Below are positions 2,380 through 49,925 of a stretch of DNA of 64,000 nucleotides, piece by piece. The DNA lies in the IMG/VR virus record IMGVR_UViG_3300011399_000001, positions 1-64,000 of that record; one strand, given 5' to 3'. Every line of letters starts with the position of its first letter. The stretch's first letter is position 1. Source of the stretch: a virus. Its lineage: Duplodnaviria; Heunggongvirae; Uroviricota; Caudoviricetes. The position numbers and the translations under genes were made by a program. Below the pieces are notes generated by a model, which did not search any database, was not told the DNA's origin, and was given only the letters and a program-made list of their open reading frames with translations.

Positions 2380-2892
2380 TTAAAATTGTTTAATTCCCCA
2401 TGTTTTTAGGAGAGTATTTACATGTTTTGCTTCAATATTCCCATCAGAGGGCCTAAAACAATAAGCCTCCTCATATGTAGCCTTTGTAGAGCTCCAATAA
2501 TATGTTGTGAATGTATGCCTTGGGAATGCATTAGAGGCTATTAGAAGCTCCCATTCTTCGTATGACGGCAACCACCACCCCAAACCATTGGCTTCACCAG
2601 AGGCGTTATTTGCCCCACAGAAGGAGATGATAGTTTGTGTGTTGTAATAGCCTTGGGCTGTAAATTGATGTAGGGGAATATCTTGGCATCCCCAAGAGAA
2701 TTCCCCTAAATTGCTCGAAACTATATACCCATGTACCTCTCCCTCTACATATTCATATGAATTCTCGTCAAATATGTAAAATATCACCCCATTATTGTAT
2801 TCTTGTCCTATTTCTAATTCAGGAGACAATTTCTTCACGTCTTCTGGTGAACAAGAGAATAATGTAATAATTAATAAAATGTATGTTTTCAT
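2380..2892 (-). CDS. lipoprotein with a DUF1566/Lcl-like C-terminal domain (170 aa)
   Basis: Lipobox-like LFSC after a hydrophobic N-terminus; GWWLPSYEEWELL resembles the W-LP..EL..L signature of DUF1566 domains. Confidence 0.45.
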   Translation of the reverse strand: MKTYILLIITLFSCSPEDVKKLSPELEIGQEYNNGVIFYIFDENSYEYVEGEVHGYIVSSNLGEFSWGCQDIPLHQFTAQGYYNTQTIISFCGANNASGEANGLGWWLPSYEEWELLIASNAFPRHTFTTYYWSSTKATYEEAYCFRPSDGNIEAKHVNTLLKTWGIKQF

Positions 2893-6617: not shown

Positions 6618-6974
6618 TTATATTACTAAATTCTTATCAAAATCTATTACATTATCTCCTTTTACAAATATTGTTTTCTTGAAATATTCATCATTTTGAC
6701 ACACCATTTGCAGCTCACCACATGTAATACTTTCTTCGACATTAATGGGGAACTTAATGTCGTCTAATATGAATATTACTTGTTCACAATTCTCAAGAGC
6801 TCTTTCTACATTAATTAAAGCAGGGTCATTTTCAATACCCCATAACATAGTAAAATAATAATAAGACATAAGATGATGTATTTCTTTTATTTTGCTATAT
6901 GTAGAAGTATCAAATATCCCCAATACAATAGCATTGTTTTTAACTACAATATCTTTTGTCTTCATATTTACCAA
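6618..6974 (-). CDS. hypothetical protein (118 aa)
   Basis: ORF track. Confidence 0.45.
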   Translation of the reverse strand: MVNMKTKDIVVKNNAIVLGIFDTSTYSKIKEIHHLMSYYYFTMLWGIENDPALINVERALENCEQVIFILDDIKFPINVEESITCGELQMVCQNDEYFKKTIFVKGDNVIDFDKNLVI

Positions 6975-7303
6975 TCATCAGGTATTTCTAGAGAATATGT
7001 GAAATCTTGTGGTTCTATGGCTTCAAGGTCTTGTCCAATTTCAGCACAAACTGATTTATACATAGCTCTAACCTTTTCATCTAGGTCAATAGGAGTTTTA
7101 ATTGATTCATAACTTAATGTTTCTTGTATTTCTCCTCCTATTTCTTTGGCATTTAAATTAGCCCTTCTTAAAGACAATGTAATGGCACAACCAAATGAAT
7201 TATAATAATTAGTGGTTCTAATATCCTCAGCTAATATGTTTAATGTTATTGTTTTCATGGGAGATAGGTTATAATTAAATAAATGATAGTAATTATTGAG
7301 CAA
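6968..7303 (-). CDS. hypothetical protein (111 aa)
   Basis: ORF track; overlaps the upstream gene by 7 nt. Confidence 0.45.
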   Translation of the reverse strand: MLNNYYHLFNYNLSPMKTITLNILAEDIRTTNYYNSFGCAITLSLRRANLNAKEIGGEIQETLSYESIKTPIDLDEKVRAMYKSVCAEIGQDLEAIEPQDFTYSLEIPDDW

Positions 7304-7628: not shown

Positions 7629-7826
7629 AATATTTTAATTTAATGTATAAAAACAATTGATACAAGTTTCTTAATATACCTTCGCTAGGCAGCCTTATTT
7701 ATTATACTGCAATATCAATTGAATGTAAGCACCCGATTAACATTAGCTCTTCTTTCGAGGGTTAACTAATGCCAGCCTACCACGCTCTCCACATATTGCC
7801 AATTAAAAGAATATATAAATATTCTT

Positions 7827-8105
7827 CTAATGATAATTTAAGCTCCCACCAGAATGATGTGTAAAATCATCTGCTGAATAGGCAGCGTCTACAGGTTCCC
7901 CTGCTTTATAACGTCTTCCATTAATAGTTTGACTTATTGCCAGCCTATTATTAGCTCTTCTATGTTTACGAGAGCTTTGCTCTAATGATACAAACCCTCT
8001 AGATTGCCTCTTTTTACTCCTATTAGAGGATTTGTCAGAAGATGGACTAAATGGAGGAGGAGGCTTTGGACTCCCTCTTCTTATTGCTATTTGTTTAATT
8101 GGCAT
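7827..8105 (-). CDS. questionable ORF encoding a basic, Pro/Ser/Arg-rich low-complexity protein (92 aa)
   Basis: ORF track; it lies in a locally GC-richer island with duplicated sequence motifs, so the region may instead be non-coding. Confidence 0.25.
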   Translation of the reverse strand: MPIKQIAIRRGSPKPPPPFSPSSDKSSNRSKKRQSRGFVSLEQSSRKHRRANNRLAISQTINGRRYKAGEPVDAAYSADDFTHHSGGSLNYH

Positions 8106-8284
8106 ATTATTAGTTAGTTGTTAATGTTAATAAGAGAGAAAGGCGGTTTTCACCTAGCTTTCGGTAAGCAGGCCCAACACCACTTGTAGCCTAAGTCTAT
8201 TCTTCTCTCTTAACTCTTTAATGTCAAAAAGAGAACACTCTAGCTGTAATAGGCTAATATACAACCACTAGAATGTCTCTTTTT

Positions 8285-8821
8285 TTAATGTGTTTCTATA
8301 CTTATGTTACTAGGAGTGAAATCAATTACCCAGTATTTTCCATCTGCAAATATAATATTTTCATGATGTAAATCTCTATGAAAAATACCTTTATTTTTAA
8401 GCTCCTCTTTAATTACATTTCTCATTTCAATGGTAAAATCAGGTATATTTTGTACTACTGTTCCTTCCAAATATTGCATAACAATACCAATTCTATATCT
8501 TCTCTCATACCAAATAATTCTTACTCCATAACATGTTGGAATATTAGAATATCTTCTTTTTCCTTCTTCTAGCAGTCTTGCTTCTTCTATAGCCTCTTTA
8601 AAATAAAGACTGTCTAGTGCTGATTTCATTGTTTCGAATTCATAATATAACAATTTAATACCTTTAGAATTGGAAATACGCATATATATACCAAAGCTTC
8701 CATTACCAGAATAGGTGGAATTTTTAATCATTTTGGTTATTGTATTAGAATACACTCTAGGTTTAAACCCTTTAAAGAATAATAAATTGGGGATTTTAAT
8801 AAATTTATAGGAAATATTCAT
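8285..8821 (-). CDS. minimal protein-kinase-like protein (178 aa; Kdo/RIO/eukaryotic-like kinase fold)
   Basis: Gly-rich loop GNGSFG, catalytic-loop-like HRDLHHENIIF, DFG-equivalent VIDFT, in kinase order and spacing. Confidence 0.55.
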   Translation of the reverse strand: MNISYKFIKIPNLLFFKGFKPRVYSNTITKMIKNSTYSGNGSFGIYMRISNSKGIKLLYYEFETMKSALDSLYFKEAIEEARLLEEGKRRYSNIPTCYGVRIIWYERRYRIGIVMQYLEGTVVQNIPDFTIEMRNVIKEELKNKGIFHRDLHHENIIFADGKYWVIDFTPSNISIETH

Positions 8822-8946
8822 ATTTTTTATGATTTAATGACAATTACAATAATTAGTACATTGTATAAATATACCCAATAAGAAGCCTATCATTACTCCT
8901 AACATTAGGGCTATGAAGTAATATTCTGTGAAATCCCATTTCTTTT

Positions 8947-9240
8947 TCATCTGTAATAAGTTTCGTTACAATGATATTTATTAAGCAATATAAGCTTAAA
9001 TTCTATTCTGTCCTCTTTTATTAGAATTGTCCCTTTTGATTGTTTCCCCTCTACATACCATACAGAATATGGGCCTGAATATATTTCAAGGATGAATTTG
9101 TATTCTTCTGTCTCATACCCTCTCATCTTCCAATATACAATGTCATTAGTTTTAGACAATGTCCCAACAATATTCCCCTCTTTGTCATGTAATATGTATT
9201 GGTTAGTAAATAAGAAGAATAGAATTGTTAACAGTTTCAT
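8947..9240 (-). CDS. secreted protein (97 aa)
   Basis: Signal-like N-terminus MKLLTILFFLFTNQYIL. Confidence 0.4.
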   Translation of the reverse strand: MKLLTILFFLFTNQYILHDKEGNIVGTLSKTNDIVYWKMRGYETEEYKFILEIYSGPYSVWYVEGKQSKGTILIKEDRIEFKLILLNKYHCNETYYR

Positions 9241-9252
9241 AGCATTAATATT

Positions 9253-9741
9253 TTATGTTACCAAATCACCTGTCTTTACATTCCATTTAAGACCATGTTG
9301 AGGGCATTGTATTATACCATTAACAGCTTTACAACTTTTAAGAGAGGTTTTATGATGAGGACATATCATTCTCTTCATCTTAGCTTTTTTTATATCATTC
9401 TTCAAAGAACCAAATTCTGCTTCAAAAGGCTCAAAATGTCTAAAATACTCTCTTTCTTTATATTGTTCATCTACAACATCTTCTTTAATAATAGGAGCAA
9501 AATATTCACTATTTTTTCCCAAATGGAGATTATATAAGGAGAATACATCTCTTTGAGCTGTTATATATTCTTCTAATACAAATCTCCAATCTTGATGATA
9601 ATGTTCTTTATTTAGAGCATGTTTTGGGCTATCTTTGTGACTATTAGCAAATATAGGTCGCCATATTCCTTTCACTAATACACATTTAACCAAATAATAT
9701 TCTCCTATTTCAGGAGCTGTACATTGTTCAATATATTGCAT
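9253..9741 (-). CDS. protein with a C-terminal Rieske-type [2Fe-2S] motif (162 aa)
   Basis: ICPHH followed 17 aa later by CPQHG, which fits the Rieske CXH-X(15-17)-CXXH pattern. Confidence 0.5.
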   Translation of the reverse strand: MQYIEQCTAPEIGEYYLVKCVLVKGIWRPIFANSHKDSPKHALNKEHYHQDWRFVLEEYITAQRDVFSLYNLHLGKNSEYFAPIIKEDVVDEQYKEREYFRHFEPFEAEFGSLKNDIKKAKMKRMICPHHKTSLKSCKAVNGIIQCPQHGLKWNVKTGDLVT

Positions 9742-13579: not shown

Positions 13580-13654
13580 AGGGTATTGGAGGAGCTTGCA
13601 GTCCTCGCCTCCCTTGGACGGAGGAGAACATAGGTTGAAATCCTATATACCCTA
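13580..13654 (+). tRNA. tRNA-Pro(TGG)
   Basis: Manual cloverleaf: acceptor AGGGTAT/ATACCCT, D-stem GAGG/CCTC, anticodon stem CCTCC/GGAGG with loop CTTGGAC, T-loop TTGAAAT. Confidence 0.7.
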
Positions 13655-13656
13655 CT

Positions 13657-13727
13657 TTCAATATAGTATAAGGAATGTACGCAAGATTTTGAATCTTGAG
13701 GTTTGGGATTGTGACCCAATATTGAAA
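13657..13727 (+). tRNA. tRNA-Gln(TTG)
   Basis: Acceptor TTCAATA/TATTGAA, anticodon stem CAAGA/TCTTG with loop TTTTGAA; short D-stem. Confidence 0.6.
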
Positions 13728-13729
13728 CT

Positions 13730-13803
13730 GTGTTTGTAGCTTAGTGGCTTAAAGCCTTTGATTGTGGTTCAAAGTATCGTGGGTTCGAATCCCATCAAAC
13801 ACC
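13730..13803 (+). tRNA. tRNA-His(GTG)
   Basis: Acceptor GTGTTTG/CAAACAC, anticodon loop TTGTGGT, T-loop TTCGAAT. Confidence 0.65.
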
Positions 13804-13807
13804 TGTT

Positions 13808-13879
13808 CTTCTTATAGTTCAATGAATAGAACACCTCACTACGGATGAGGAAATTGAGGTTTGACCCCTTATAAGAAGA
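13808..13879 (+). tRNA. tRNA-Arg(ACG)
   Basis: Perfect acceptor CTTCTTA/TAAGAAG, D-stem GTTC/GAAC, anticodon stem CCTCA/TGAGG with loop CTACGGA. Confidence 0.65.
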
Positions 13880-13884
13880 CACAT

Positions 13885-13967
13885 GCACTTATGGTGGAAT
13901 GGTAGACACGCTTGCCTTAGGAGCAAGTGCCTGAAAGGGTGTATAGGTTCGAGTCCTATTAAGTGTA
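13885..13967 (+). tRNA. tRNA-Leu(TAG), class II
   Basis: Acceptor GCACTTA/TAAGTGT (one G-U), anticodon stem CTTGC/GCAAG with loop CTTAGGA, long variable arm, T-loop TTCGAGT. Confidence 0.7.
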
Positions 13968-13972
13968 CATAT

Positions 13973-14057
13973 GCAGGTATGGCGAAATTGGTAGACGCAT
14001 CAGACTTAAAATCTGACGGGCATTATGCTCATAGAGGTTCGACTCCTCTTACCTGCA
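13973..14057 (+). tRNA. tRNA-Leu(TAA), class II
   Basis: Perfect acceptor GCAGGTA/TACCTGC, anticodon stem TCAGA/TCTGA with loop CTTAAAA, long variable arm, T-loop TTCGACT. Confidence 0.7.
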
Positions 14058-14062
14058 CATAA

Positions 14063-14149
14063 GGAGGGTTGGCTGGAGATGGATTATCGCACTAGTCTTG
14101 AAAACTAGAGGACAGAAATGTTCCGTGAGTTCGAATCTCACACCCTCTT
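14063..14149 (+). tRNA. tRNA-Ser(TGA), class II
   Basis: Acceptor GGAGGGT/ACCCTCT, anticodon stem CTAGT/ACTAG with loop CTTGAAA, long variable arm, T-arm GTGAG-TTCGAAT-CTCAC. Confidence 0.65.
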
Positions 14150-14152
14150 CAC

Positions 14153-14237
14153 AGAGAGCTGGCAGAGTGGTTTATTGCATTTGGTTGCTAACTAAAAGGG
14201 CTTAACAGCTCCAGGGGTTCGAACCCCTTGCTCTCTT
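14153..14237 (+). tRNA. tRNA-Ser(GCT), class II
   Basis: Perfect acceptor AGAGAGC/GCTCTCT, anticodon stem TTTGG/CTAAA with loop TTGCTAA, long variable arm, T-loop TTCGAAC. Confidence 0.65.
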
Positions 14238-14243
14238 CATTTT

Positions 14244-14326
14244 GGTATGGATGGTAAATTGGCTAAATCAGCAGACTGTAAATCTGTCGCCATTAGGCTA
14301 TGTAGGTTCGATTCCTACCCATACCA
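14244..14326 (+). tRNA. tRNA-Tyr(GTA), class II
   Basis: Perfect acceptor GGTATGG/CCATACC, anticodon loop CTGTAAA, long variable arm, T-arm GTAGG-TTCGATT-CCTAC. Confidence 0.7.
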
Positions 14327-14370
14327 CGAAAATAAATCATTTAAAATTTGGAATATTCGAATATATTCCC

Positions 14371-14378
14371 TACTTTTG
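14371..14378 (+). promoter_or_regulatory. TAnnTTTG element (TACTTTTGTATTATG) inside the tRNA array, directly before a 25-codon mini-ORF
   Basis: Near-identical to the motif at 13245-13259 (CCCTAYYTTTGTATTATGA). Confidence 0.4.
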
Positions 14379-14382
14379 TATT

Positions 14383-14460
14383 ATGAAACTGAAAAACGAT
14401 GATATTATAATGGCTAAAGAAGAGGATGAGGAGCTTACACTCCTGTCGTCTAGAAGTTAG
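14383..14460 (+). CDS. mini-ORF of 25 aa (MKLKNDDIIMAKEEDEELTLLSSRS)
   Basis: ATG 5 nt after the conserved promoter motif; it is the only part of track ORF 14242..14460 that does not overlap tRNA-Tyr; coding status uncertain. Confidence 0.25.
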   Translation: MKLKNDDIIMAKEEDEELTLLSSRS

Positions 14461-14641
14461 GACATTACACTTTCAATGTAAAAAAGAGGGAGCATTACCC
14501 TTCAGGAGTACACAAAAATAGAATCATGAAAAGGAATTGGTTTAATATTATGTTCACCTCATTTACTACAAGAGATTGTGGTAAGGCGGGAATATATTGT
14601 TGGAGCCAATAACTAATAAAGTTATAATCAAATTGATTAAG

Positions 14642-14667
14642 GGCTCCATAACAATGGGGCCTTTTTT
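14642..14667 (+). terminator. rho-independent terminator (GGCTCCAT-AACA-ATGGGGCC plus TTTTTT)
   Basis: Seen directly; closes the small transcription unit embedded in the tRNA array. Confidence 0.55.
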
Positions 14668-14673
14668 ATTTAT

Positions 14674-14746
14674 GGGGCATTGGTGAAGATGGCTATCACA
14701 CCTGATTTGCATTCAGGAGTCATGGGTTCGAAGCCCATAAGTTTCC
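14674..14746 (+). tRNA. tRNA-Ala(TGC)-like element whose acceptor stem does not pair (possible pseudo-tRNA)
   Basis: Canonical D-arm GTGA/TCAC, anticodon stem CCTGA/TCAGG with loop TTTGCAT and T-arm ATGGG-TTCGAAG-CCCAT. The 5' GGGGCAT has no complementary 3' strand; the 3' side reads AAGTTTC. Confidence 0.35.
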
Positions 14747-14752
14747 ACATAA

Positions 14753-14824
14753 CGAGGGTGTAGTGTAATGGCTGCATATCACACTGTCACTGTGAAGGTA
14801 GGAGTTCGAACCTCCCATTCTCGG
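14753..14824 (+). tRNA. tRNA-Asp(GTC)
   Basis: Acceptor CGAGGGT/ATTCTCG (two G-U), anticodon stem TCACA/TGTGA with loop CTGTCAC, T-loop TTCGAAC; D-arm slightly irregular. Confidence 0.5.
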
Positions 14825-14829
14825 CATAA

Positions 14830-14900
14830 GGGTTGTTAGCCTAGTGGTCAGGCAGTAGACTGTTAATCTACCTACGGGTGTTCAATTCACTCACTTCCCT
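14830..14900 (+). tRNA. tRNA-Asn(GTT)
   Basis: D-arm GCCT-AGTGGTC-AGGC, anticodon stem GTAGA/TCTAC with loop CTGTTAA, T-loop TTCAATT; acceptor GGGTTGT/ACTTCCC has two U-U mismatches. Confidence 0.5.
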
Positions 14901-14905
14901 CACAC

Positions 14906-14978
14906 ACGTATATAACTCAATTGGTAGAGTAATAGTCTCCAAAACTGTAAGCTGGTGGTTCGACTCCATTTATACGTG
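14906..14978 (+). tRNA. tRNA-Trp(CCA)
   Basis: Perfect acceptor ACGTATA/TATACGT, anticodon loop CTCCAAA, T-loop TTCGACT. Confidence 0.65.
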
Positions 14979-14983
14979 CATAC

Positions 14984-15055
14984 TCCCTTGTGGCTCAATG
15001 GTACAGCAGCAGTTTTGTAAACTGCCATTTGTAAGTTCGAATCTTACCTGGGGAT
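14984..15055 (+). tRNA. tRNA-Thr(TGT)
   Basis: Anticodon stem GCAGT/ACTGC with loop TTTGTAA, T-arm GTAAG-TTCGAAT-CTTAC; acceptor TCCCTTG/CTGGGGA has one mismatch. Confidence 0.6.
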
Positions 15056-15063
15056 CATAGAAT

Positions 15064-15137
15064 TTCTCTGTAGCTCAATTGAATAGAGCGACAGCCTTCT
15101 AAGCTGTAGGTTGGAGGTTTGAACCCTCCCAGGGAAG
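15064..15137 (+). tRNA. tRNA-Arg(TCT)
   Basis: Acceptor TTCTCTG/CAGGGAA (one G-U), D-arm GCTC..GAGC, anticodon stem ACAGC/GCTGT with loop CTTCTAA, T-arm GGAGG-TTTGAAC-CCTCC. Confidence 0.65.
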
Positions 15138-15257
15138 CTTAAATAATAAAAATGGAAACAGATAAGCGACAGAGGCACATGCCTCTAAAGCATTAAGGTG
15201 ATGCTCTAGACTTTTAATCTAGAGAAGATGGGTCAGTACCATCTAGGGGTACTTTAT

Positions 15258-15329
15258 AGTAGGATAGCTCAATGGTGGAGCGCCACACTGATAATGTGGA
15301 GGTTATAGGTTCAACTCCTGTTCTTACTA
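15258..15329 (+). tRNA. tRNA-Ile(GAT)
   Basis: Acceptor AGTAGGA/TCTTACT, D-arm GCTC-AATGGTG-GAGC, anticodon stem CCACA/TGTGG with loop CTGATAA, T-loop TTCAACT. Confidence 0.7.
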
Positions 15330-15337
15330 CTTTATAT

Positions 15338-15408
15338 TGCGGGATAGATTAATGGTAGATCAAGGGGCTCATATCCCCTGCGTGGGGGTTCAACTCCCCC
15401 TCCCGCCA
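15338..15408 (+). tRNA. tRNA-Met(CAT) with initiator-like features
   Basis: Anticodon loop CTCATAT on an AGGGG/CCCCT stem (three consecutive G-C pairs); 1-72 position mismatched (T versus C); T-arm GGGGG-TTCAACT-CCCCC. Confidence 0.6.
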
Positions 15409-15412
15409 CTAT

Positions 15413-15485
15413 GGACTCTAAGCTAACCTAGTGAAAGCGCTGGACTGAAAATCCAGGGAGTTTGGAGCGTAACCAAAAGGGTCCA
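15413..15485 (+). tRNA. tRNA-Phe(GAA), atypical D- and T-loops
   Basis: Acceptor GGACTCT/AGGGTCC, anticodon stem CTGGA/TCCAG with loop CTGAAAA; D-loop lacks GG and T-loop is AGCGTAA. Confidence 0.45.
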
Positions 15486-15490
15486 CATAT

Positions 15491-15564
15491 GTATTAGTAG
15501 CTCCTAATGCCAGAGCGTCTGACTTCCAATCAGAAGGCTGTGGGTTCAAGTCCCACCTAGTACA
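15491..15564 (+). tRNA. tRNA-Gly(TCC)
   Basis: Acceptor GTATTAG/CTAGTAC, D-stem GCTC/GAGC, anticodon stem TCTGA/TCAGA with loop CTTCCAA, T-arm GTGGG-TTCAAGT-CCCAC. Confidence 0.65.
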
Positions 15565-15754
15565 CAATTTTTTCCTCCTCATTATCAGGCGGTTAGCCTG
15601 TATTTTCCTCTTTCCCTATTATTTTCATTAAAAATGTTGTACCTTTGCAGGGTGGTTGGGTGGGGTATGTATAACAGCTCCCGATATAGAAAAAAAGAAC
15701 GGGACAGAAAGAATGTATTAATTAGGGGATAGTGTGTCTAATAATGTAATATAA

Positions 15755-15835
15755 GTCAAGGTTCCAGAGTGGTTAAATGGACCTGTCTGCAAAACAGGTG
15801 AGAAATCTTCGGGTGTTCGAATCACCTCCTTGGCT
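15755..15835 (+). tRNA. tRNA-Cys(GCA)-like with an unusually long (about 12 nt) variable arm
   Basis: Acceptor GTCAAGG/CCTTGGC, anticodon stem CCTGT/ACAGG with loop CTGCAAA, T-arm GGGTG-TTCGAAT-CACCT; extra arm GAGAAATCTTC. Confidence 0.45.
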
Positions 15836-15848
15836 CTAAATAAAGGAT

Positions 15849-18109: not shown

Positions 18110-18422
18110 CTATGTATCAACAGAACTAGATTGGGCAGAAGAACAGCTTGCTACCTGGAGAGCTTATGTAGATGCCAACCCTTTAGACAAACTTAAAGAT
18201 AGGATTGAAAACAAACCAACCGCTAGAGGAGGTGTTATACCAATGGTGGTGTCTTCTATTGAACAGCAGGGAAAGTTTATACAGGATACAATGAAAAACT
18301 ATCTTTCTCTTTTAGAGATTGTTAACAATTTAAGAGAAAAAGAAGAGGCTAAGAAAGTAGAGATTAGGGGAAAAGGAGAGCTGTCAGGACAAGCTGCTAA
18401 TTTCTTAAATACTAGAAAATGA
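18090..18422 (+). CDS. candidate terminase small subunit (110 aa)
   Basis: Position only: ATGA overlap with the large terminase gene directly downstream; no motif. Confidence 0.35.
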   Translation: MAKKQNNYVSTELDWAEEQLATWRAYVDANPLDKLKDRIENKPTARGGVIPMVVSSIEQQGKFIQDTMKNYLSLLEIVNNLREKEEAKKVEIRGKGELSGQAANFLNTRK

Positions 18423-20464
18423 TAAAAGAACTAGCTGATTTAAAGGATGTTAAATCAATAGATTATAAGGATTGGTTAATAAATCAGAAAAGGCTTCCAG
18501 ATAAGACTTCTCAGGAATATGAAGCATTTTTTGAATTTCATAAAGAACTTTGTCTTAATGGAGCTATGGTTAATGGGGTGTACTTCAACCCCTTTTTGTA
18601 TTGGCACCTTAATATGTGGCATACAGAAGTGGATGTTATAGATGATAAGGGAAGAATAAGCCAACCATACAAAAACCCTCTTCTAAGAGATAATGAATGG
18701 ATAATTACAGAAGCCATAGAAAGAGCTCACAAGGAAAAGAAAGGACTTGCTATTGGTGGTATAAGGCGTTTAGCTAAATCAGTAATAGAAGCTTCATATA
18801 TAGGATGGGGAGCCACCCTTGACCAAAACTCACAGAATGTTATATCTGGTTTGAATGCAGCAGATATAAAACTTATCACTGATAAATTAGACAAAGGGCT
18901 AAACTTTGTCCCTGAATATTACAGATGGCAAAGGGTTGAAGATAATTGGAAAAATCAAGTAACCCTAGGAATAAAGACAAGAGCAGGAGAACGTATCCCA
19001 TTCTCCTACATCCTTATCAGGAACTTAGATGAGGGAAATAATGAAGAGGTTATTGCAGGAACAAAGCCAAGGAAACTAATTATAGATGAAGGAGGAAAAG
19101 GACCTTTTCTAGGAGGATTGAATGCTGCCAAGCCAGGTTTCACTACACCTTTTGGTTGGGCATGTTCTCCAATAGTTACATTTACAGGAGGAGATATGAC
19201 TAAGTTTCAGGATGCTAAAACTCTAATGTTTGATGTTGGAGCTTATAACTTCCTTGAATACAATAGTAAGGATGATACTAAGAGAGTGCATGGACTATTC
19301 TTTAGCCATAAGTATAGACTAGAGGGAAAGAAGGATTCTACACTAGGAGACTACCTTAATAGTCCAAACCCTGCATTAAAACAAATACCAATGCAAGTGA
19401 GCGATGAAGCACTTGCTACAAAGGTAACAGATGAGAATCTAATAATGGCTAAAAAGGCTGGAGATAGAAAAGCCTATTTAAAGGAAAAAATGTACTACCC
19501 TAAAACTGTAGATGACATTTTCCTTAATGAAAATACAAACATATTTGATATAGAGGCAGCTCAAAGACAGAAAGCTCGTCTTTTACAACAGGGAAGAACA
19601 GGTACTCCTGTTATTCTTTTTGCTTCAGAAACAGGAATTGGACATCAATTTACAGACAAGATGCCCATTTCCAATTTTCCATTAAAACCAAATGATGACA
19701 AGGATGCTCCTGTTGTCATATTAGAATTTCCAATAGCTGGTGCTATCTATGGACTTAATGTAGCAGGTGTTGACCCTTATAGGCAAGGAAAGGCTAAATA
19801 TAGTGATTCCTTAGGAGCCATATATATATACAAAAGAATGCATGACATTACTGGTGAGAAATACCAAGATATGTTTGTTGCTTATTATGTAGCTAGACCA
19901 GATGATAAAAAGAAATGGGAGGAACAAGCTAGACTCCTTATAAAATTCTATAATGCTCGTACCTTATGTGAAAATGATGATATATCATTTATAGAGCACA
20001 TGAAGGCTACCAATAATTCTCATTATTTAGAGAAACAACCTGATTGGTTAAAAGAAATAGTCCCTAACACAACTGTTAGTAGAGATTTTGGGGTACATCG
20101 TTCTTCTGACAAAATTGTAGACTTCTTACATGGTTGTTTAAAAAGATATACAGAAGAAATTATATTTGAAGAGAAGGATAAAGAGGGAAATGTTATTAGA
20201 CAGGTAACAGGAATGAGTAAAATTCTAGACCCTATGTTATTGGAGGAGATGATTCAATATAATGAGGATGGAAACTTTGATCGTATTGTAGCAGCAGAAC
20301 TTGCTTTAGCACAAGCCTATAAAATGGCCCCTATATATGGGAAGGCCACAGATAAACCAGATGATAGGGCTGCTTCTTTAGCAAAGAAACAAAAAGTAAA
20401 AAGTTTATTTCCCTCCCACAATCAGGGACTTTTTAAGAAATCAGAACGTAAATTATTCAGATAA
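18419..20464 (+). CDS. terL: terminase large subunit (681 aa)
   Basis: Walker A-like GGIRRLAKS, Walker B LIIDE, C-terminal RNaseH-like nuclease acidic residues (GVDPYRQG...); lies directly upstream of the portal with a TAATG overlap. Confidence 0.65.
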   Translation: MIKELADLKDVKSIDYKDWLINQKRLPDKTSQEYEAFFEFHKELCLNGAMVNGVYFNPFLYWHLNMWHTEVDVIDDKGRISQPYKNPLLRDNEWIITEAIERAHKEKKGLAIGGIRRLAKSVIEASYIGWGATLDQNSQNVISGLNAADIKLITDKLDKGLNFVPEYYRWQRVEDNWKNQVTLGIKTRAGERIPFSYILIRNLDEGNNEEVIAGTKPRKLIIDEGGKGPFLGGLNAAKPGFTTPFGWACSPIVTFTGGDMTKFQDAKTLMFDVGAYNFLEYNSKDDTKRVHGLFFSHKYRLEGKKDSTLGDYLNSPNPALKQIPMQVSDEALATKVTDENLIMAKKAGDRKAYLKEKMYYPKTVDDIFLNENTNIFDIEAAQRQKARLLQQGRTGTPVILFASETGIGHQFTDKMPISNFPLKPNDDKDAPVVILEFPIAGAIYGLNVAGVDPYRQGKAKYSDSLGAIYIYKRMHDITGEKYQDMFVAYYVARPDDKKKWEEQARLLIKFYNARTLCENDDISFIEHMKATNNSHYLEKQPDWLKEIVPNTTVSRDFGVHRSSDKIVDFLHGCLKRYTEEIIFEEKDKEGNVIRQVTGMSKILDPMLLEEMIQYNEDGNFDRIVAAELALAQAYKMAPIYGKATDKPDDRAASLAKKQKVKSLFPSHNQGLFKKSERKLFR

Positions 20465-23058
20465 TGGCTATTATTAGACATACAAAAGACGAAAATATAA
20501 GGTATGCTTATTTAAACATATTTCCAGATCAGTTTAAAACTGAGAAGGAGAAGCAAAATGATTCATGGGTGAAAAACACTATGGATTATTTTTCTAATAA
20601 AGCTTATGCTGAATATGTAAGAAATAGAGAAACTTTCGTTAAAAATTATGACCTTGTAAAAGGAATTTTAAGGAGAGAAGATTTTTATGAAGAACCTGCT
20701 GTAAAGAGTTTTACAGAGATGTTGACAGAAGACCTTGATCTTCCTGCATATGTAAAACATTATTCTATTATCACAACCCCCTTAAATGAGCTTGTAGGGG
20801 AAATATCTAAAAGACCAGATAATTATAAAATAAAAGCTTTTGATGATGACTCCAAATCTGAGGAGTTGGAATATAAGACACAAATTCTACAGGATTATAT
20901 AGTATCTGCTGCAAGACAGAAAATACAACAAAAACTAGCTTTACAAGGAGAAGAGATAACAGAAGAAGAACTTCAACAACTTACATTAGAAGAGGTAAAG
21001 GATGACCTTGATAGCTACACCTCTATAGCTGAAAAATGGGCCAATCACACTCTTACTTGTATAAAGGCAGACTTCAACCTTAAAGAAAAGAGTGAGGATG
21101 CCTTTAGAGATATGGGAATTACAGCAAGGGAATACTACCATATTTACGAGGATAATTCTAAGACAGGTTTTGATATAGAAGTATCCAACCCTAAGAATAC
21201 TTGGAAGCTTACTACCCCTGATAAGAAATATATATCAGACCCTTCAGGTAGAAGCAAAGGAGCTTATGCTGCTGGTACTGTGCATGTTATGGAGATTTCT
21301 GAAATTATAGAGGCTTGTTCAGATATTACAAAGGATGAAATTGATCACTTAAGACTAGCCCTTCAGGATTACGGACTTATCAATGTAAGGGAATCCAACC
21401 TTTTCAATGGCATTACCCCAGGGATTAATTCTATTACATATGACACCTATGACCCTTTAGTATTGCAGGAGAGAATGTTAATAGAAAGTGAGCTGAAGGA
21501 AAACAATGACTCTTTAAGAGATTTCCTTGGCCTCACTTCTAACGTTTCTGCTTTTGGGTATAAATATGTAGTGGTAAGGGCTTATTGGATAAGTAAGAAG
21601 AAAATAGGGAAAGTGACATATATAGATGAGCTTGGAAATGAGCAATCTATGTTAGTGGACGAAGATTATAAGGCAGGTACTATTCCTACAGAAATAGACC
21701 TAACTTGGGGATGGGTGAATCAATGGTATCAGGGAATGAAAATAGGACCAGACATCTACCATGTTAAACCTTTCAAATTACTAGACTATTGTCCTATTAT
21801 AGGGATGGACTATGAAATAAAAAATACAGAAGTTCGCTCTCTGGTGGATATGATGAAGCCTTTTCAGGTACTTTATAATGTCTGCATGAACCAAATGTTC
21901 GACCTTTTAAAGAAAGAAATAGGGAACGTAGCCACTATTAATATAAGAAGAATTCCTAGAGTGAAGGATGGAGATGCTCAGGATGATATTGATATATGGG
22001 AAATGGAGGCTAGAAACAGGGGTATTATGTTTGATGATGATAGTCCTGAAAATACCAAAGCTCCTGTCACCAACACCTCTGTAGCCAAGAATGTAGACCT
22101 TACAAGAACACAAGAAATGCAGGGACGCTATAATCTTGCTGTTCAGCTTAAAAACGAATGTTGGGAATTGATAGGAATGAGTAAACAAAGAATGGGAAGT
22201 GTATCTCCTTCAGAGTCTGCTACAGGAACCAATAATGCTGTACAAATGAGTTATTCTCAAACAGAACCAATGTTTGTAGCTCATGAATATGTATTAGGAC
22301 AACTATATCAGGCTATTATAGATGCTTCGCTTTATATAGAAAGTCAGAAGCCAGAATCCACCCTTTCTTATATCACCTCTCAGGGAGAATCTGCTTTTGT
22401 ACAGGTAAATGGAACTGACCTTAAATTAAGAGACCTTAAAGTGTTTCCTACCAACCGTCCTGAAGATAAGAAACTATTTGAAGAACTTAGACTGTTGGCT
22501 CAACCAGCTATGCAGAACGGAGCTTCATTATACGATATTGTAGAGCTTTATGCTACAGATAGTATTAGACAAATGAAGAAAACCTTCAAAGTCCTTAAAG
22601 ATAGACAGGAAGAGTTTCAAAACACTGCTCAACAACAAGAACAGCAACAACTTACTCAAAATGCTGAAATTGCCCAAGCTCAATTGGCTCAACAACAATA
22701 TGAGAAAGAGCAGGAATTGGCTCACGAAGACTATCAAAAAGAACTGGACCGTATTAATAAGAAGGAGATTGCCATCATCCAAAGCCTAGGTTTTGGTAAA
22801 GTGGAGGGAGAGGATACCAACCAGAACCAAATATTCGATGTTTTGGAAAGTAACAATCTTTCTTTTGAAAGAGACAAAGCCTCAAAGGACCATAATATCA
22901 AGCTTTTAGAGGTTCAAAATAAGAATAAGGCTGATGAAAGGAAGTTGAAATTAGATGAGGAAAAGCTTAAGGTGGAAAGAGAGAATATGGTTAACGACCT
23001 TCAAATTGCCAGAATAAACGCTAAGAATAAGAACAAGAAACCAGCTAAAAAGAAATAA
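20464..23058 (+). CDS. portal protein (864 aa) with a Q/K/E-rich C-terminal coiled-coil tail
   Basis: Size and position directly after terL with a translational-coupling overlap; C-terminal 150 aa are low-complexity QQQEQQQ.../K-rich. Confidence 0.6.
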   Translation: MAIIRHTKDENIRYAYLNIFPDQFKTEKEKQNDSWVKNTMDYFSNKAYAEYVRNRETFVKNYDLVKGILRREDFYEEPAVKSFTEMLTEDLDLPAYVKHYSIITTPLNELVGEISKRPDNYKIKAFDDDSKSEELEYKTQILQDYIVSAARQKIQQKLALQGEEITEEELQQLTLEEVKDDLDSYTSIAEKWANHTLTCIKADFNLKEKSEDAFRDMGITAREYYHIYEDNSKTGFDIEVSNPKNTWKLTTPDKKYISDPSGRSKGAYAAGTVHVMEISEIIEACSDITKDEIDHLRLALQDYGLINVRESNLFNGITPGINSITYDTYDPLVLQERMLIESELKENNDSLRDFLGLTSNVSAFGYKYVVVRAYWISKKKIGKVTYIDELGNEQSMLVDEDYKAGTIPTEIDLTWGWVNQWYQGMKIGPDIYHVKPFKLLDYCPIIGMDYEIKNTEVRSLVDMMKPFQVLYNVCMNQMFDLLKKEIGNVATINIRRIPRVKDGDAQDDIDIWEMEARNRGIMFDDDSPENTKAPVTNTSVAKNVDLTRTQEMQGRYNLAVQLKNECWELIGMSKQRMGSVSPSESATGTNNAVQMSYSQTEPMFVAHEYVLGQLYQAIIDASLYIESQKPESTLSYITSQGESAFVQVNGTDLKLRDLKVFPTNRPEDKKLFEELRLLAQPAMQNGASLYDIVELYATDSIRQMKKTFKVLKDRQEEFQNTAQQQEQQQLTQNAEIAQAQLAQQQYEKEQELAHEDYQKELDRINKKEIAIIQSLGFGKVEGEDTNQNQIFDVLESNNLSFERDKASKDHNIKLLEVQNKNKADERKLKLDEEKLKVERENMVNDLQIARINAKNKNKKPAKKK

Positions 23059-24936: not shown

Positions 24937-26490
24937 ATGGCAATTCAAACAATCCCAGGTCTAACTGGTTTTACCTACGCTAGGGTAGCTTCAATGGATA
25001 AACGTGCAGTGGGTAAACTCACTGACTCTAACCACTTAGAGAGCTTTCACTCTACAGAGCCTGCTGATTATGATAAGAAAATCATAAGCTTATACACACA
25101 GAGCTCATTGTATAGCAACGACTTTTTGGATATGATTAACAAATCTATTCCTTACTACATTGATAACAACAGTGATAGCTGGAAGTGGGATGTTAATGTT
25201 CCATATAAGTTTCCTAAAATCATTGCTATTCCAACTTCAACATCTGATAATACAAAGCCAGGTATTGATGGACAAGAATTCCAATTAGTATTGGACACTG
25301 CGGAATTCTCTAAAAACGCGATTCTTTCAATAGGAGATCGTAGATATGGTCCTCAAGTTTCTGTAGCAAAAGACCCTCTTCCTTGGAATTCAGGTTTCTT
25401 GTATACATTTACATTGGTGACAGACAATCCTATGGTGGACTTTGTAAGCCCTACTTATTTAAAGGTGGGAATCGAGGTTCAGTTGATTAGTGCGTCTATT
25501 GGGGAATTTGACCAAGACCTTTTAGGATTGCCACGTTTAGGAGAGAAGATTACAATGTTCGAATCTCTTGGAAGTGCATTTGGTTATGAGCACACTATCA
25601 CAAAATGGGCAGATGAAAAAATGCTTCGTAATGCTGATGGACAAGCTTTGGATATTCTGGTATATGCTCCTTCTCGTAGAAATCAAATGCCTCTTAAACG
25701 TAATGATGTACGTTGGGAGCCATTCATTGAGTTCTGGATGAGAAAATCAATGCTTGAATTGAAGGTGAACAAGTTCATCTGGGGTAAAGCAGGTACAGTG
25801 AAAACTAATGGCTCCAAGCAAGAATTGAAGCGTCTTTCTGATGGTGTATACCAAAGAATGCGTAACAACGGAAACTTGGTACAATATAACAGAGGTGAAT
25901 TCTCTGCCAATTTAATACGTGCAGTCTTCGGAGATTTGTTCTATCGTAGGGTGGATGTTAAAGACAGACGTGTAAAAATGTACACTAATGAGGCAGGTTT
26001 TGATACCTTCCAGCAAGCTCTGAAGGATGATGCTCTGAATTCAGGTTTAACACTGGTTGCTGATAGTGGTGAACGTTATATCCAAGGTGCAGGTCAACAT
26101 CTAACATACAATTGGGCGTTTGATTCAATGGTGACAAGGGAAACTGGACGTGTAGACTTAGTACACTTAAAAGAGCTAGACCTTCCTCAAACAAACCTTG
26201 AATTTGGTCAGAATAAGAAAAGCACACCTGTATTCTTCGTATTTGATGTGTCTCCTTCTAGTGATGGAAGTTTGACAAACAATATTCGTGAAGTACGTAT
26301 GAAGGGAGCCCCTTCTATGACATGGGGATATATTGATGGACGTCAATCTCACTTAGGACACTTTGCTTCTAAGGGAATGCAATCAGCCAACAAATTCCCA
26401 GGCTATACATTGTGGATGGAAGACAGATGTGATATTTTCATTGAAGACCTTTCTCGCACAGTTCTCATAGAAGAGATACCTCAGTTCTAA
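24937..26490 (+). CDS. candidate major capsid protein (517 aa)
   Basis: Position after portal/scaffold, size, high-expression codon usage and a very strong terminator immediately downstream; no fold-level check was possible. Confidence 0.5.
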   Translation: MAIQTIPGLTGFTYARVASMDKRAVGKLTDSNHLESFHSTEPADYDKKIISLYTQSSLYSNDFLDMINKSIPYYIDNNSDSWKWDVNVPYKFPKIIAIPTSTSDNTKPGIDGQEFQLVLDTAEFSKNAILSIGDRRYGPQVSVAKDPLPWNSGFLYTFTLVTDNPMVDFVSPTYLKVGIEVQLISASIGEFDQDLLGLPRLGEKITMFESLGSAFGYEHTITKWADEKMLRNADGQALDILVYAPSRRNQMPLKRNDVRWEPFIEFWMRKSMLELKVNKFIWGKAGTVKTNGSKQELKRLSDGVYQRMRNNGNLVQYNRGEFSANLIRAVFGDLFYRRVDVKDRRVKMYTNEAGFDTFQQALKDDALNSGLTLVADSGERYIQGAGQHLTYNWAFDSMVTRETGRVDLVHLKELDLPQTNLEFGQNKKSTPVFFVFDVSPSSDGSLTNNIREVRMKGAPSMTWGYIDGRQSHLGHFASKGMQSANKFPGYTLWMEDRCDIFIEDLSRTVLIEEIPQF

Positions 26491-47184: not shown

Positions 47185-49925
47185 TGGCGAGTTTTGTTGA
47201 CCATCTTCCTACATTTAAAGAATACGTACAACAGTTTCCTGTGGAGGCTGCTGTAAGAGTGGGTACATATAAACAGGGAAAATACGACGAGGGGATACAG
47301 AAAATTCAACAACATATTGATAATGTTGCAGGAATTGATGTTGTTAGGGATGTAGACAAACAATACCTTAATTCTAAATTAAACGAATTAAAGGGAGGGC
47401 TTAGGAAAGTGGCTGCTGGAGATTTCTCTAATTACCAGTTAGTGAATAATGTAGGAGGTATGATTTCGCAAGTGGCCAAAGACCCTTCTGTTGTGAATGC
47501 TGCTTCCTCTACAGCTTGGTACAGGAAACAAATAGAGAAGATGCAGAAGGATGTAGATGAAGGAAAGTCTAACCCTGCTAATATTGATTATTTCCAAAAA
47601 CATGCTCAAACATGGTTGAATTCTCCTAATGCAGGAGAAAAGTTTTCAGGACAATATATCCCTAATTTTGATGTTTTTAAGTTTGCTAAGGAAGCATTTG
47701 ATGCTGTAAAACCTGATGGATATTCTTTTGATCAATTATACATAACTGATCAAAATGGAGTACCAAAAACAGATGCACAGGGACGTCCTATAGCTTCTCC
47801 TATAATGAAGAGGCTTGAGAAGGAGGGGATATTTCCAGAGAAAGTGAGAGCCACTCTTAATCAAATATTCTCTGACCCTAGAGTAGACACTCAATTGTCT
47901 ATATCTGGAGAATATGCACTAAAGCAATATTCTCCCCAATTATTGTCTAATAGAATACTTTATCAAAAGAATAAAGTAGTGGGAGATTTACAAGATCAAT
48001 TGAATGCTCTTAATTTACAGAAGAATACAGGAAAAAATGTACAGGCTGATATAGACATTATACAACAACAGATTGAGAATACTAGGGTGAAATATGATGA
48101 TTTTAGCAGACTAGCTCTCTCTTCACCTGATGCTGTAAGAGCCTCCCTGTATAAAGATGATGTTAAAAGTAATTATACCTCTATGTTTGGTTGGACTAAA
48201 ACCAAAGAGCAATCTATGGAAAGTCCTCTTTGGAATGCTAATTTTAGACTAAATCAAGAGGCTAATAGAGTGGCAGAATTCAGAGAAAGAATGGATTTTG
48301 AGAAAGGGAAGGAAGCTTTTGACAGACAATATAAAATAACAGACCTTAATTTAAAAGCTCAAAAAGAATTAAACAAAGGGCAATTACCAGCTAATGCTAA
48401 ACAAGATGCACAATTATCAGATCCTAATATAGGGGTGATGCAATTTGATGCTTTATATGAGGGGGCTGCTAAAAACTACAATGACACTTCTAGTGATTTC
48501 ATTTATTCTATGGTGCTGAAAAATCCAGAAAACGATGCAGAATTACAAAAATATATAAGAGCAGGAAATTCCAAAGAAGCCTCTATAGAAATTTTAATGA
48601 AAAATAAAGTAAGACAGAAATATCTTGCACAAGGAATAGAACCTGATGAAGAGATAATAAACAATGAAGTAGCTGATTTAAAGACCAAGTGGGAACAAGA
48701 AGCTATAGTGGCTATTAATAAAATGACTCCTGTAGAAAAAGAAAAGAATTCTGATGTAGCTGATTCATACAACACATATAGTAGGGCTAAAAAGGAATTT
48801 TTGAAAGCTACAGAAATTAAGAATGAAGCAGAGAAAGTAATGGGTACGGAATTAGCAAATACACTTAATTCTGCTAATTTCAAAGCTTCTCCTATTAAAG
48901 TTAATATTGGAGGAAAAGCTATAACTCTCACACCAGAAGACCTTTACAATGCAGCATTGTATTTAAAAGGAAATGAGGCACCTATTGGTTTTATGAATAA
49001 TGAATCTTTGAGAGGACAAGCAAAAATAGCTGAAACAGCTTTAATTAATGCTGGAAAAGGAGAAATTCTTGATTATATAGAAGATCACGCAAACGAATTT
49101 CTTGATGGTCCTACAAATGCTGCTATTTCAAATATTTCAATAGGGGCTTCTATTGAAAATCCAAATTTGGTTAAGCAGTTTAAGAAATTATATAAAGACA
49201 TTGACAATACTACATTACAAGCTGCCATAAGGTCTAAAGCTGATGCTATTAAACAATTAGGTTTCACTGTTTCTCCCAATCTTAGAGTTGATATTGTAAC
49301 AGGGAATACAGAAGCTGACAGAAATACATTTACTAAAATATTAGCAACAGCAGGAAATTATACTTCAGTTAAACAAAATCTGTCTCCAGACTTTGATTAT
49401 TCTAAAATAAATGATGTTTTAAATAGTAAAGATAACATAAAACCTCTTGAACTTAAAACTAGAAAAAATGATGCTACAGGAGAAATCACTCCTGAACTCG
49501 TATTTTATGGAGATAATGGGAAAAGAGTGGCTGGTATGGTGATTAGTCCAGAAGAAGCATTAGCTATAGGTATAAATACAAACTCTTTATACGAATCTGC
49601 TGATATTAAAATCCTAAGAGATAGAATGAATGCTTCTCCTTTAGGTAGCACCTCTATAGGTGACCCTAAAGAAATTTTAACATATGTTGAGGGAGATGCT
49701 TGGTTTGAAAAACAAGACTTCCCTAATTTAACAGGAAGCAGGTATGATGTAAAGGCCAATCTTGTTAGAAAGAATGGACTGGTCTATCCTGTAATATATG
49801 TTACTGATGGAATAACAACACCTCTTCCAAGGACTTTACCTGGACAAAGAGATGTAGCTGATGCTGTAGACAAGCTTATGTCTGTAACACCACAATTTGT
49901 AAATTCAATATTAAACGAGAAATAA
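47184..49925 (+). CDS. large alpha-helical virion protein (913 aa)
   Basis: TAATG overlaps on both sides; no catalytic motif recognised. Confidence 0.55.
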   Translation: MASFVDHLPTFKEYVQQFPVEAAVRVGTYKQGKYDEGIQKIQQHIDNVAGIDVVRDVDKQYLNSKLNELKGGLRKVAAGDFSNYQLVNNVGGMISQVAKDPSVVNAASSTAWYRKQIEKMQKDVDEGKSNPANIDYFQKHAQTWLNSPNAGEKFSGQYIPNFDVFKFAKEAFDAVKPDGYSFDQLYITDQNGVPKTDAQGRPIASPIMKRLEKEGIFPEKVRATLNQIFSDPRVDTQLSISGEYALKQYSPQLLSNRILYQKNKVVGDLQDQLNALNLQKNTGKNVQADIDIIQQQIENTRVKYDDFSRLALSSPDAVRASLYKDDVKSNYTSMFGWTKTKEQSMESPLWNANFRLNQEANRVAEFRERMDFEKGKEAFDRQYKITDLNLKAQKELNKGQLPANAKQDAQLSDPNIGVMQFDALYEGAAKNYNDTSSDFIYSMVLKNPENDAELQKYIRAGNSKEASIEILMKNKVRQKYLAQGIEPDEEIINNEVADLKTKWEQEAIVAINKMTPVEKEKNSDVADSYNTYSRAKKEFLKATEIKNEAEKVMGTELANTLNSANFKASPIKVNIGGKAITLTPEDLYNAALYLKGNEAPIGFMNNESLRGQAKIAETALINAGKGEILDYIEDHANEFLDGPTNAAISNISIGASIENPNLVKQFKKLYKDIDNTTLQAAIRSKADAIKQLGFTVSPNLRVDIVTGNTEADRNTFTKILATAGNYTSVKQNLSPDFDYSKINDVLNSKDNIKPLELKTRKNDATGEITPELVFYGDNGKRVAGMVISPEEALAIGINTNSLYESADIKILRDRMNASPLGSTSIGDPKEILTYVEGDAWFEKQDFPNLTGSRYDVKANLVRKNGLVYPVIYVTDGITTPLPRTLPGQRDVADAVDKLMSVTPQFVNSILNEK

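Follow-up and report, generated by a model that had tools for sequence, protein, structure and literature searches.

The αF helix organises the core of a kinase, anchoring the catalytic loop and the hydrophobic spines, and together with the rest of the C-lobe it counts as the scaffold on which every protein kinase is built. Canonical Hanks-type kinases (Pfam Pkinase) carry this scaffold in subdomains VIII–XI, which hold the activation segment with its APE motif, αF (DxWxxG) and αG–αI. The type III effector kinase OspG is described as active although it is without subdomains VIII–XI, and as being turned on when it binds E2~ubiquitin (PMC12756638). Here we describe P0001, a minimal protein-kinase-like (PKL) protein of 178 amino acids (aa) encoded by a crAss-like phage. 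Its gene, read as an open reading frame (ORF) with an ATG start, lies on the minus strand at 8285..8821 of a 64,000-nt stretch (positions 1 to 64,000 of IMG/VR record IMGVR_UViG_3300011399_000001; hereafter, the window). Subdomains VIII–XI are absent from P0001, and a family that keeps all catalytic residues but ends at the DFG-equivalent would define a minimal kinase core.

The best documented functional precedent is the phage-encoded T7 gp0.7 kinase (T7K), which reprograms the host and provides broad counter-defence by phosphorylation, disarming many bacterial defences (PMC13645617). T7K has a kinase domain of ~242 aa, in which DPV replaces DFG, and a fused C-terminal DNA-binding/shut-off domain (PMC13645617). 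P0001 belongs to a different family: its motif is IDF, and it is a single 178-aa domain. Disarming of defences by a phage kinase is known for the T7 family only (PMC13645617), and the P0001 family is unrelated to it and occurs in uncultured phages, including crAss-like ones. Our literature searches turned up no description of a protein kinase in crAss-like phages, where the first-pass annotation of this DNA had stated that none is characterised, and none of the P0001 family. New PKL families are still appearing in the literature (10.64898/2026.09.18.752743).

Conservation of the catalytic residues

The ORF and its three kinase motifs (GNGSFG, HRDLHHEN and VIDF) had been placed correctly by the first-pass annotation, and their order and spacing fit a kinase core. 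The protein has a predicted isoelectric point of 9.4 and a predicted mass of 21.1 kDa, and no paralogues of it were found within the window. A word-indexed homology search returned only P0001 itself when the protein was used alone and only 7 proteins when the family alignment was used. When 1.84 billion cluster representatives (clusters at 50% identity) were scanned exhaustively with HMMER, a family of 185 clusters emerged at E ≤ 1e–3, 76 of them at E ≤ 1e–10. Nearly all members are 150–200 aa long, roughly half the length of a normal kinase domain, and they share ~25–45% identity with P0001. In an 87-member alignment no variation occurs at G41, G54, K56, D150, N155 and D167, and conservation reaches 90% or more at Y46, E80, P95, H117, H152 and I166. 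The counts given below come from 146 members re-aligned to the family hidden Markov model (HMM), the denominators being the sequences aligned at each column.

The Gly-rich ATP loop GNGSFG (residues 39–44; 8690..8707, on the minus strand like all parts of the gene) continues as G-N-G-S-F-G-I-Y in P0001 and takes the form x-x-G-x-x-G-x-Y in the family. The loop as first annotated therefore stands for G41 (144/144) and G44 (116/144, or 80%) but not for G39, which is found in only 45 of 142 members. Two further catalytic residues, both beyond the motifs given in that annotation, are present and conserved. The β3 ATP-binding Lys, K56 (8654..8656; 145/145), was located by the column counts in 'GIK', the equivalent of VAIK, where G54 precedes it (145/145). 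Its salt-bridge partner, the αC Glu E80 (8582..8584; 144/145), falls inside the predicted helix 72–90. In the catalytic loop HRDLHHEN (residues 148–155; 8357..8380), D150 (146/146) and N155 (145/146) are conserved in homologues, but the Arg of the supposed 'HRD', R149, occurs in 14 of 146 members only. The family consensus of this loop is H-x-D-L-H-x-x-N, and with R149 not conserved its members are therefore non-RD kinases. At position D+2 (H152 in P0001), 129/146 members have His and 1/146 has Lys. The Mg-binding IDF (residues 166–168, within VIDF 165–168; 8318..8326) is the DFG equivalent; D167 is invariant (146/146) and F168 is found in 126/144. At position 117, His is present in 137/146 members and Tyr in three, P0001 among them.

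Since the same columns are invariant in homologues and profile and fold searches match kinases, the motif match lies far above chance, and the kinase-like core first proposed for this ORF is supported. We are nearly certain that P0001 is a real gene with a kinase fold. It might be asked whether the product is a pseudokinase or a decaying remnant, truncated and non-catalytic and perhaps serving as a binding module only. The C-lobe is indeed missing from αF onward, and the single-sequence Pfam scores all fall under the curated cutoffs. However, all six catalytic positions vary little or not at all among 146 proteins at such low identity, the stop position recurs family-wide, and the gene is kept in three related phages (at 39–43% identity); we regard this reading as very improbable. 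Invariance of the catalytic set at ~25–45% identity points to purifying selection on catalysis and favours an active enzyme over a pseudokinase. Judging from these residues, P0001 is very probably an active phosphotransferase or ATPase.

Predicted fold and the missing C-lobe

As a single sequence, P0001 was modelled by AlphaFold2 at a predicted score in the local distance difference test (pLDDT) of 35; with the family alignment the model was confident (pLDDT 91.3, predicted template-modelling score 0.84). Foldseek searches of this model against the PDB and BFVD matched almost only kinases, so that structure prediction, one of the checks suggested in the first-pass annotation, came out in favour of its reading. 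The model has helices at residues 26–33, 65–69, 72–90 (αC) and 131–143 (αE) and strands at 37–40, 44–48, 53–62, 97–105, 108–116 (followed by a short turn), 146–148, 156–159, 162–165 and 173–175. The predicted N-lobe consists of an N-terminal helix, β1–5 and αC, and the predicted C-lobe stub of a short αD, αE, the catalytic loop and the Mg-binding IDF, closed by a single strand. P0001 thus has both features expected of a PKL protein, the elements of the bilobal fold and the conserved set of catalytic residues. Because the family profile, the AlphaFold2 model and Foldseek all point to kinases, assignment of the predicted fold to the PKL superfamily is secure.

The gene had first been described as a kinase core with no regulatory extension. 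This holds, but P0001 is truncated beyond that, with the C-lobe missing from αF onward: neither the model nor the end of the sequence contains an APE motif or activation segment, αF, or αG–αI. Only 11 residues, with one short strand (173–175), lie between D167 and the stop codon, and the protein ends at the point at which an ordinary kinase would enter its activation segment. Among the 130 members in which both motifs could be located, the tail after the Mg-binding Asp has a median of 11 residues and a minimum of 7. Because the stop position recurs across these 130 members, the truncation is native to the family and P0001 is not a truncated copy. Estimated from alignments, the solved small kinases keep about 35–40 residues after this Asp (NleH/OspG), ~48 (Rio2) or ~68 (Bud32). 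By sequence length, the family appears shorter than the solved 'minimal' kinases and reduced one step beyond OspG.

A split or interrupted kinase would place the C-lobe in the next ORF or past an intron or a frameshift in ~7640–8225. The ~600 bp downstream of the gene are in fact compositionally odd, hold no convincing gene and have folding potential (z = –3.45). However, the downstream genes are non-homologous between loci, and the next gene is convergent in one of them (L007, below). Moreover, a strong terminator-like hairpin stands directly past the stop, and no Rfam intron was matched. We rejected the split-gene or intron idea on these grounds. In addition, more than 100 independent family clusters end at the same place, and AlphaFold2, given the family alignment, folds P0001 confidently alone. 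The chance of a split gene is, in our judgement, close to negligible.

The hairpin itself is 59 nt long and near-perfect, with A-tract and U-tract flanks, and lies directly 3' of the stop codon (8226..8284, minus strand; ΔG –23.7 kcal/mol). Over 43 nt (8241–8283) it is 86% identical to positions 6685–6727 of L010, a related crAss-like contig, at a site ~150–190 nt downstream of the kinase orthologue there. Probably the hairpin serves as a conserved intrinsic terminator, possibly a bidirectional one. Its place directly past the stop and its partial conservation in L010 suggest that the P0001 gene would end a transcription unit.

Relation to known kinases and candidate function

With P0001 alone, Pfam gave sub-threshold yet consistent matches to the kinase superfamily (APH, Pkinase, WaaY, RIO1 and ABC1). 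APH scored 23.1 bits against a cutoff of 23.2, over residues 125–170 only, while Pkinase and RIO1 scored 20.0 and 17.2 bits against gathering thresholds of 31.7 and 22. Matches to PHROGs were weak (phrog_3297, 'kinase'; phrog_3145, of unknown function; and a marginal third), as were phmmer matches in the PDB (PAK5 and Rio2). Searched against the PDB, the family profile matched Rio2 (1.7e–9), Bud32 (8UNK, 6.7e–6), OspG (1.1e–5), spectinomycin phosphotransferase (1.4e–5) and NleH1/2 (about 2–3e–5). Taken one by one, the 87 members matched Pfam RIO1 in 69 cases (best 9.5e–9), APH in 49, TCAD9 in 45, Pkinase in 28, Kdo kinase in 16 and OspG_kinase in one (E < 0.01). Among NCBIfam models, arch_bud32 was matched by 73/87, Kdo kinase by 60/87 and NleH by 5/87, far under the curated cutoffs; no curated family cutoff of Pfam or NCBIfam was reached by the family. 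PADLOC returned generic kinase-loop matches only (PD-T4-6, MkoA and mad6). In sequence the family thus appears nearest to the RIO/Bud32/Kdo-kinase group, and in architecture it is nearest to the 'minimal' effector kinases. Overall, we consider it a separate PKL family, carried by phages, in which the C-lobe is reduced to an exceptional degree.

Hanks-type kinases have the catalytic loop HRD-L-K-x-x-N, unlike the family consensus. The effector kinases OspG, NleH1/2 and HopBF1, which keep about 35–40 residues past the Mg-binding Asp, are secreted into eukaryotic cells, whereas P0001 is phage-encoded and would act in a bacterium. P0001 scores 22.1 bits with the NleH NCBIfam model (cutoff 450). 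RIO kinases (A. fulgidus Rio2, 1TQI; Rio1, 1ZP9) have the STGKEA motif as their nucleotide loop and C-lobe helices after IDxxQ, whereas the family has x-x-G-x-x-G-x-Y, and P0001 has no helices past IDF and 11 residues past the Mg-binding Asp where Rio2 has ~48. RIO proteins are cellular ribosome-maturation ATPases and P0001 is a phage accessory gene; RIO appears to be the nearest family by sequence, but P0001 is not a clean member of it. Bud32/PRPK, the KEOPS kinase/ATPase, resembles P0001 in being small and without an activation loop, and its model arch_bud32 is the one most members match. However, the P0001 family reaches 32.8 bits against an equivalog cutoff of 125, and ~68 residues past the Asp in Bud32 correspond to 11 here. 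No Kae1/TsaD-like neighbour was found in any locus examined, and the extended, Kae1-binding C-terminal tail of Bud32 is also absent. Scores for the archaeal tRNA kinase ArkI (8YV5, 7VNX), an archaeal enzyme, were not distinctive.

Given RIO, Bud32 and ArkI among its relatives, P0001 might be an ATPase or kinase directed at RNA or ribonucleoproteins (RNPs), with ribosomes of the host or tRNAs of either host or phage as its targets. The models for such an activity would be ribosome maturation by RIO, the tRNA t6A pathway of Bud32 and tRNA 2'-phosphorylation by ArkI. However, the RIO signatures are lacking, the C-terminal part of Bud32 past the Mg-binding Asp (~68 residues, an estimate) has no counterpart in P0001, and Ark1 scores no better than ordinary kinases. 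Bacteria are not known to have KEOPS. Furthermore, the gene has a tRNA array beside it in just the two related crAss-like contigs, and none lies within 10 kb of it in three unrelated phage backgrounds. A general association with tRNA genes was rejected, the link being lineage-specific, and an RNA- or RNP-directed role seems to us quite improbable.

The D-L-H-x-x-N loop and the APH and Kdo matches would also fit a small-molecule kinase. Its substrate could be a sugar or lipopolysaccharide precursor (as for Kdo kinase/WaaP), an aminoglycoside-type antibiotic or a nucleotide-derived immune signal, and the phage would use it for envelope remodelling or for neutralising a small-molecule defence. 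APH/choline-aminoglycoside kinases, however, have a helical substrate-binding C-terminal subdomain, and P0001, whose APH score is just under threshold, is without one. This makes a small-molecule substrate unlikely, if somewhat less so than an RNA or RNP.

By analogy with the minimal effector kinases and T7K (PMC13645617), we tentatively propose that P0001 is a protein kinase directed at proteins of the host or the phage in takeover or counter-defence, with a protein substrate rather than a small molecule or RNA, although we would place this slightly short of an even chance. ATP would be held by the Gly loop, the K56–E80 pair and the hinge. D150 would act as the base, with N155 and D167 holding metal ions (Mg or Mn), and the gamma-phosphate would be transferred, or at least hydrolysed. 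With no activation segment, no conserved HRD Arg and no P+1 or αF–αI platform, the enzyme would be constitutively poised, without regulation by loop phosphorylation, and its stability and substrate choice would come from elsewhere. The absence of αF implies some compensation, and a homodimer interface, or a partner from host or phage as in the OspG precedent, might supply both. P0001 would then be a Ser/Thr(/Tyr) protein kinase modifying host or phage proteins, a functional analogue of T7 gp0.7. The takeover or counter-defence role is inferred from the character of the gene, which is stand-alone, fast-evolving, sometimes duplicated, accessory and located in small-ORF blocks.

Several observations weigh against this proposal. 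His at D+2, present in 129/146 members, is more typical of the APH/CAK/UbiB/YihE-type small-molecule branch, where Ser/Thr kinases have Lys. The nearest sequence relatives, RIO and Bud32, are mainly ATPases acting on RNPs, and the substrate of Kdo kinase is a sugar. The loss of αF, if uncompensated, could compromise catalysis. Depletion of Ser/Thr, as reported for T7K phages, gave a weak signal confounded by protein class: Ser+Thr content is 9.9% in proteins of the small-ORF block around P0001 versus 11.5% in those of the structural block (P-value = 0.004), and with Tyr included the difference is not significant (P-value = 0.18).

Taken as a whole, the statement that P0001 is a catalytically competent ATP-dependent phosphotransferase reduced to a bare core, most likely a protein kinase for takeover or counter-defence, is in our estimate about as probable as its negation. 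A further-reaching version would make the family the smallest natural self-standing PKL catalytic core (~140 structured residues, the last strand being the one past the Mg-binding Asp), active without αF by way of a homodimer or a hijacked host protein, and a widespread, hitherto unseen phage tool for takeover or counter-defence. We consider this version rather doubtful. The family would offer a very small scaffold for engineering and for the study of partner activation; it is unusual for kinase structural biology and timely for work on phage counter-defence. CrAss-like phages have many small genes of unknown function, and for one of these it also provides a candidate function that is concrete and open to testing.

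Genomic setting and distribution among phages

The window derives from a 123,911-bp contig of an ENA metagenome assembly. Family matches identified TerL (18419–20464), portal (20464–23058) and the major head protein (24937–26490). A 3794-aa ORF on the plus strand (49925–61309) has DFDID at its residue 2933, a motif that serves as catalytic signature of the crAss-like virion-packaged RNA polymerase (10.1101/2020.03.07.982082). The window TerL is distant from those of cultured phages: it is 40.5% identical to that of Leptolyngbya phage Lbo-JY46, ~30% to those of Cellulophaga phages phi17:2 and phi4:1 and 24.5% to that of uncultured phage cr273_1, and records of IAS virus and Azobacteroides phage are among its matches.

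The P0001 gene lies inside a leftward-transcribed block of ~28 small ORFs, nearly all without a family match. This block is divergent from the structural module and from an array of 21 tRNA genes that ARAGORN placed between the two (13580–15836, plus strand). A 22nd tRNA gene is found at 1012–1085 on the minus strand, and Rfam calls a further tRNA at 15413–15485 that ARAGORN missed. From this layout, early expression of P0001 is plausible. Early transcripts of the crAss-like phage phi14:2 do not share a promoter motif (10.1101/2020.03.07.982082), and in our sigma-70 promoter scan 23 sites were found versus 17 expected.

Several neighbouring features stand out. The segment 7640–8225, downstream of P0001, has a GC content of 36–40% versus 25–30% around it. 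Its only ORF (7827–8105, minus strand, 92 aa) is low-complexity and Pro/Ser/Arg-rich and has no Pfam match. The minus-strand RNA of the segment folds better than shuffled sequences (the z-score given above), and no Rfam family, introns included, was matched in it. By analogy with the highly transcribed intergenic RNAs of phi14:2 (10.1101/2020.03.07.982082), it could be a long non-coding RNA. Two genes upstream of P0001, a 162-aa ORF (9253–9741, minus strand) has a C-terminal Rieske [2Fe-2S] domain (Pfam 26.6 bits versus cutoff 20.3), an unusual feature in a small-ORF block of a phage. This ORF and the gene of equal size upstream of the L010 kinase are not homologous. A 170-aa protein (2380–2892, minus strand) is 66% identical to that encoded at 7169–7681 of L010, versus 40% for the kinase; it has a weak Lcl C-terminal-domain-like match and falls in a PHROG of unknown function.

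Orthologues of P0001 are present in two related crAss-like contigs, L010 and L012, which match the window in layout, both for TerL and for the tRNA array followed by a small-ORF block. The L012 TerL is 52% identical to that of the window, and the kinases of L012 and L010 are 39% and 40% identical to P0001. The tRNA arrays of the window and of L010 start in the same order, Pro-Gln-His-Arg-Leu-Leu. Beyond this lineage, a family member is carried by an unrelated 36-kb phage contig with Thy1, RNR and SLT (L013). A 54.5-kb contig (L002/L004; Logan SRR21686416_51352) with a sigma-70-like factor, an RNA polymerase alpha-CTD-like gene and HNH/homing endonucleases carries two divergent paralogues, P0073 (154 aa) and P0033 (166 aa), ~1.5 kb apart, a duplication that suggests target diversification. 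Another member, P0026, lies around 359–380 kb of L007 (JGI 3300059835, Ga0558092_0000004; 859,192 bp), a contig that might come from a phage of exceptional size or from a bacterium with a small genome. Around P0026, genes for an arginyl-tRNA synthetase, SSB, a 5'-3' exonuclease, an N6/N4 methyltransferase and a Collar (tail-fibre) domain protein occur beside many small ORFs of unknown function. No neighbour or partner gene conserved across the phage backgrounds was found, so the kinase appears to be a stand-alone accessory gene.

Known from metagenomes only, the family is covered poorly by public resources. None of ten sampled members was in NCBI or UniRef, and JGI auto-naming labels two members 'RIO1' and 'Bud32'. 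In PHROGs any one family was matched by at most 7 of 87 members, and BFVD held no structure close to the family. A tblastn search of P0001, the family consensus and P0013 against 50,697 GenBank phage records found nothing significant, although the Lys-rich consensus was perhaps partly masked by the low-complexity filter. The sole T7-type trace in it, at a marginal E = 2, was a match to a gene annotated as a serine-threonine kinase in Escherichia phage Flotzy. Megablast of the region against phages likewise gave no match. PHROGs, BFVD and the GenBank phage genomes all lack the family, so current annotation pipelines call its members 'hypothetical' or mislabel them 'RIO1' or 'Bud32'.

We also probed IMG/VR and the GTDB species genomes with the back-translated motif GI(V/I/L)MQHLG (~33 bits of information). 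The probe matched 12 loci in IMG/VR and 112 in GTDB, where ~100 were expected by chance (an estimate), and no true members were found among these 124 loci (best family HMM score 30 bits, versus 140–196 in true members). A 435-aa kinase, the only find of a search for related loci with an 11-sequence alignment, was rejected as a family member, being distant and full-size, with the C-lobe retained. This conventional kinase (L006, IMGVR_UViG_3300032219_001728, 119 kb; 7833–9140) is encoded directly downstream of a GT4 glycosyltransferase of the 'conflict-system' type and also lies near an ornithine/arginine decarboxylase.
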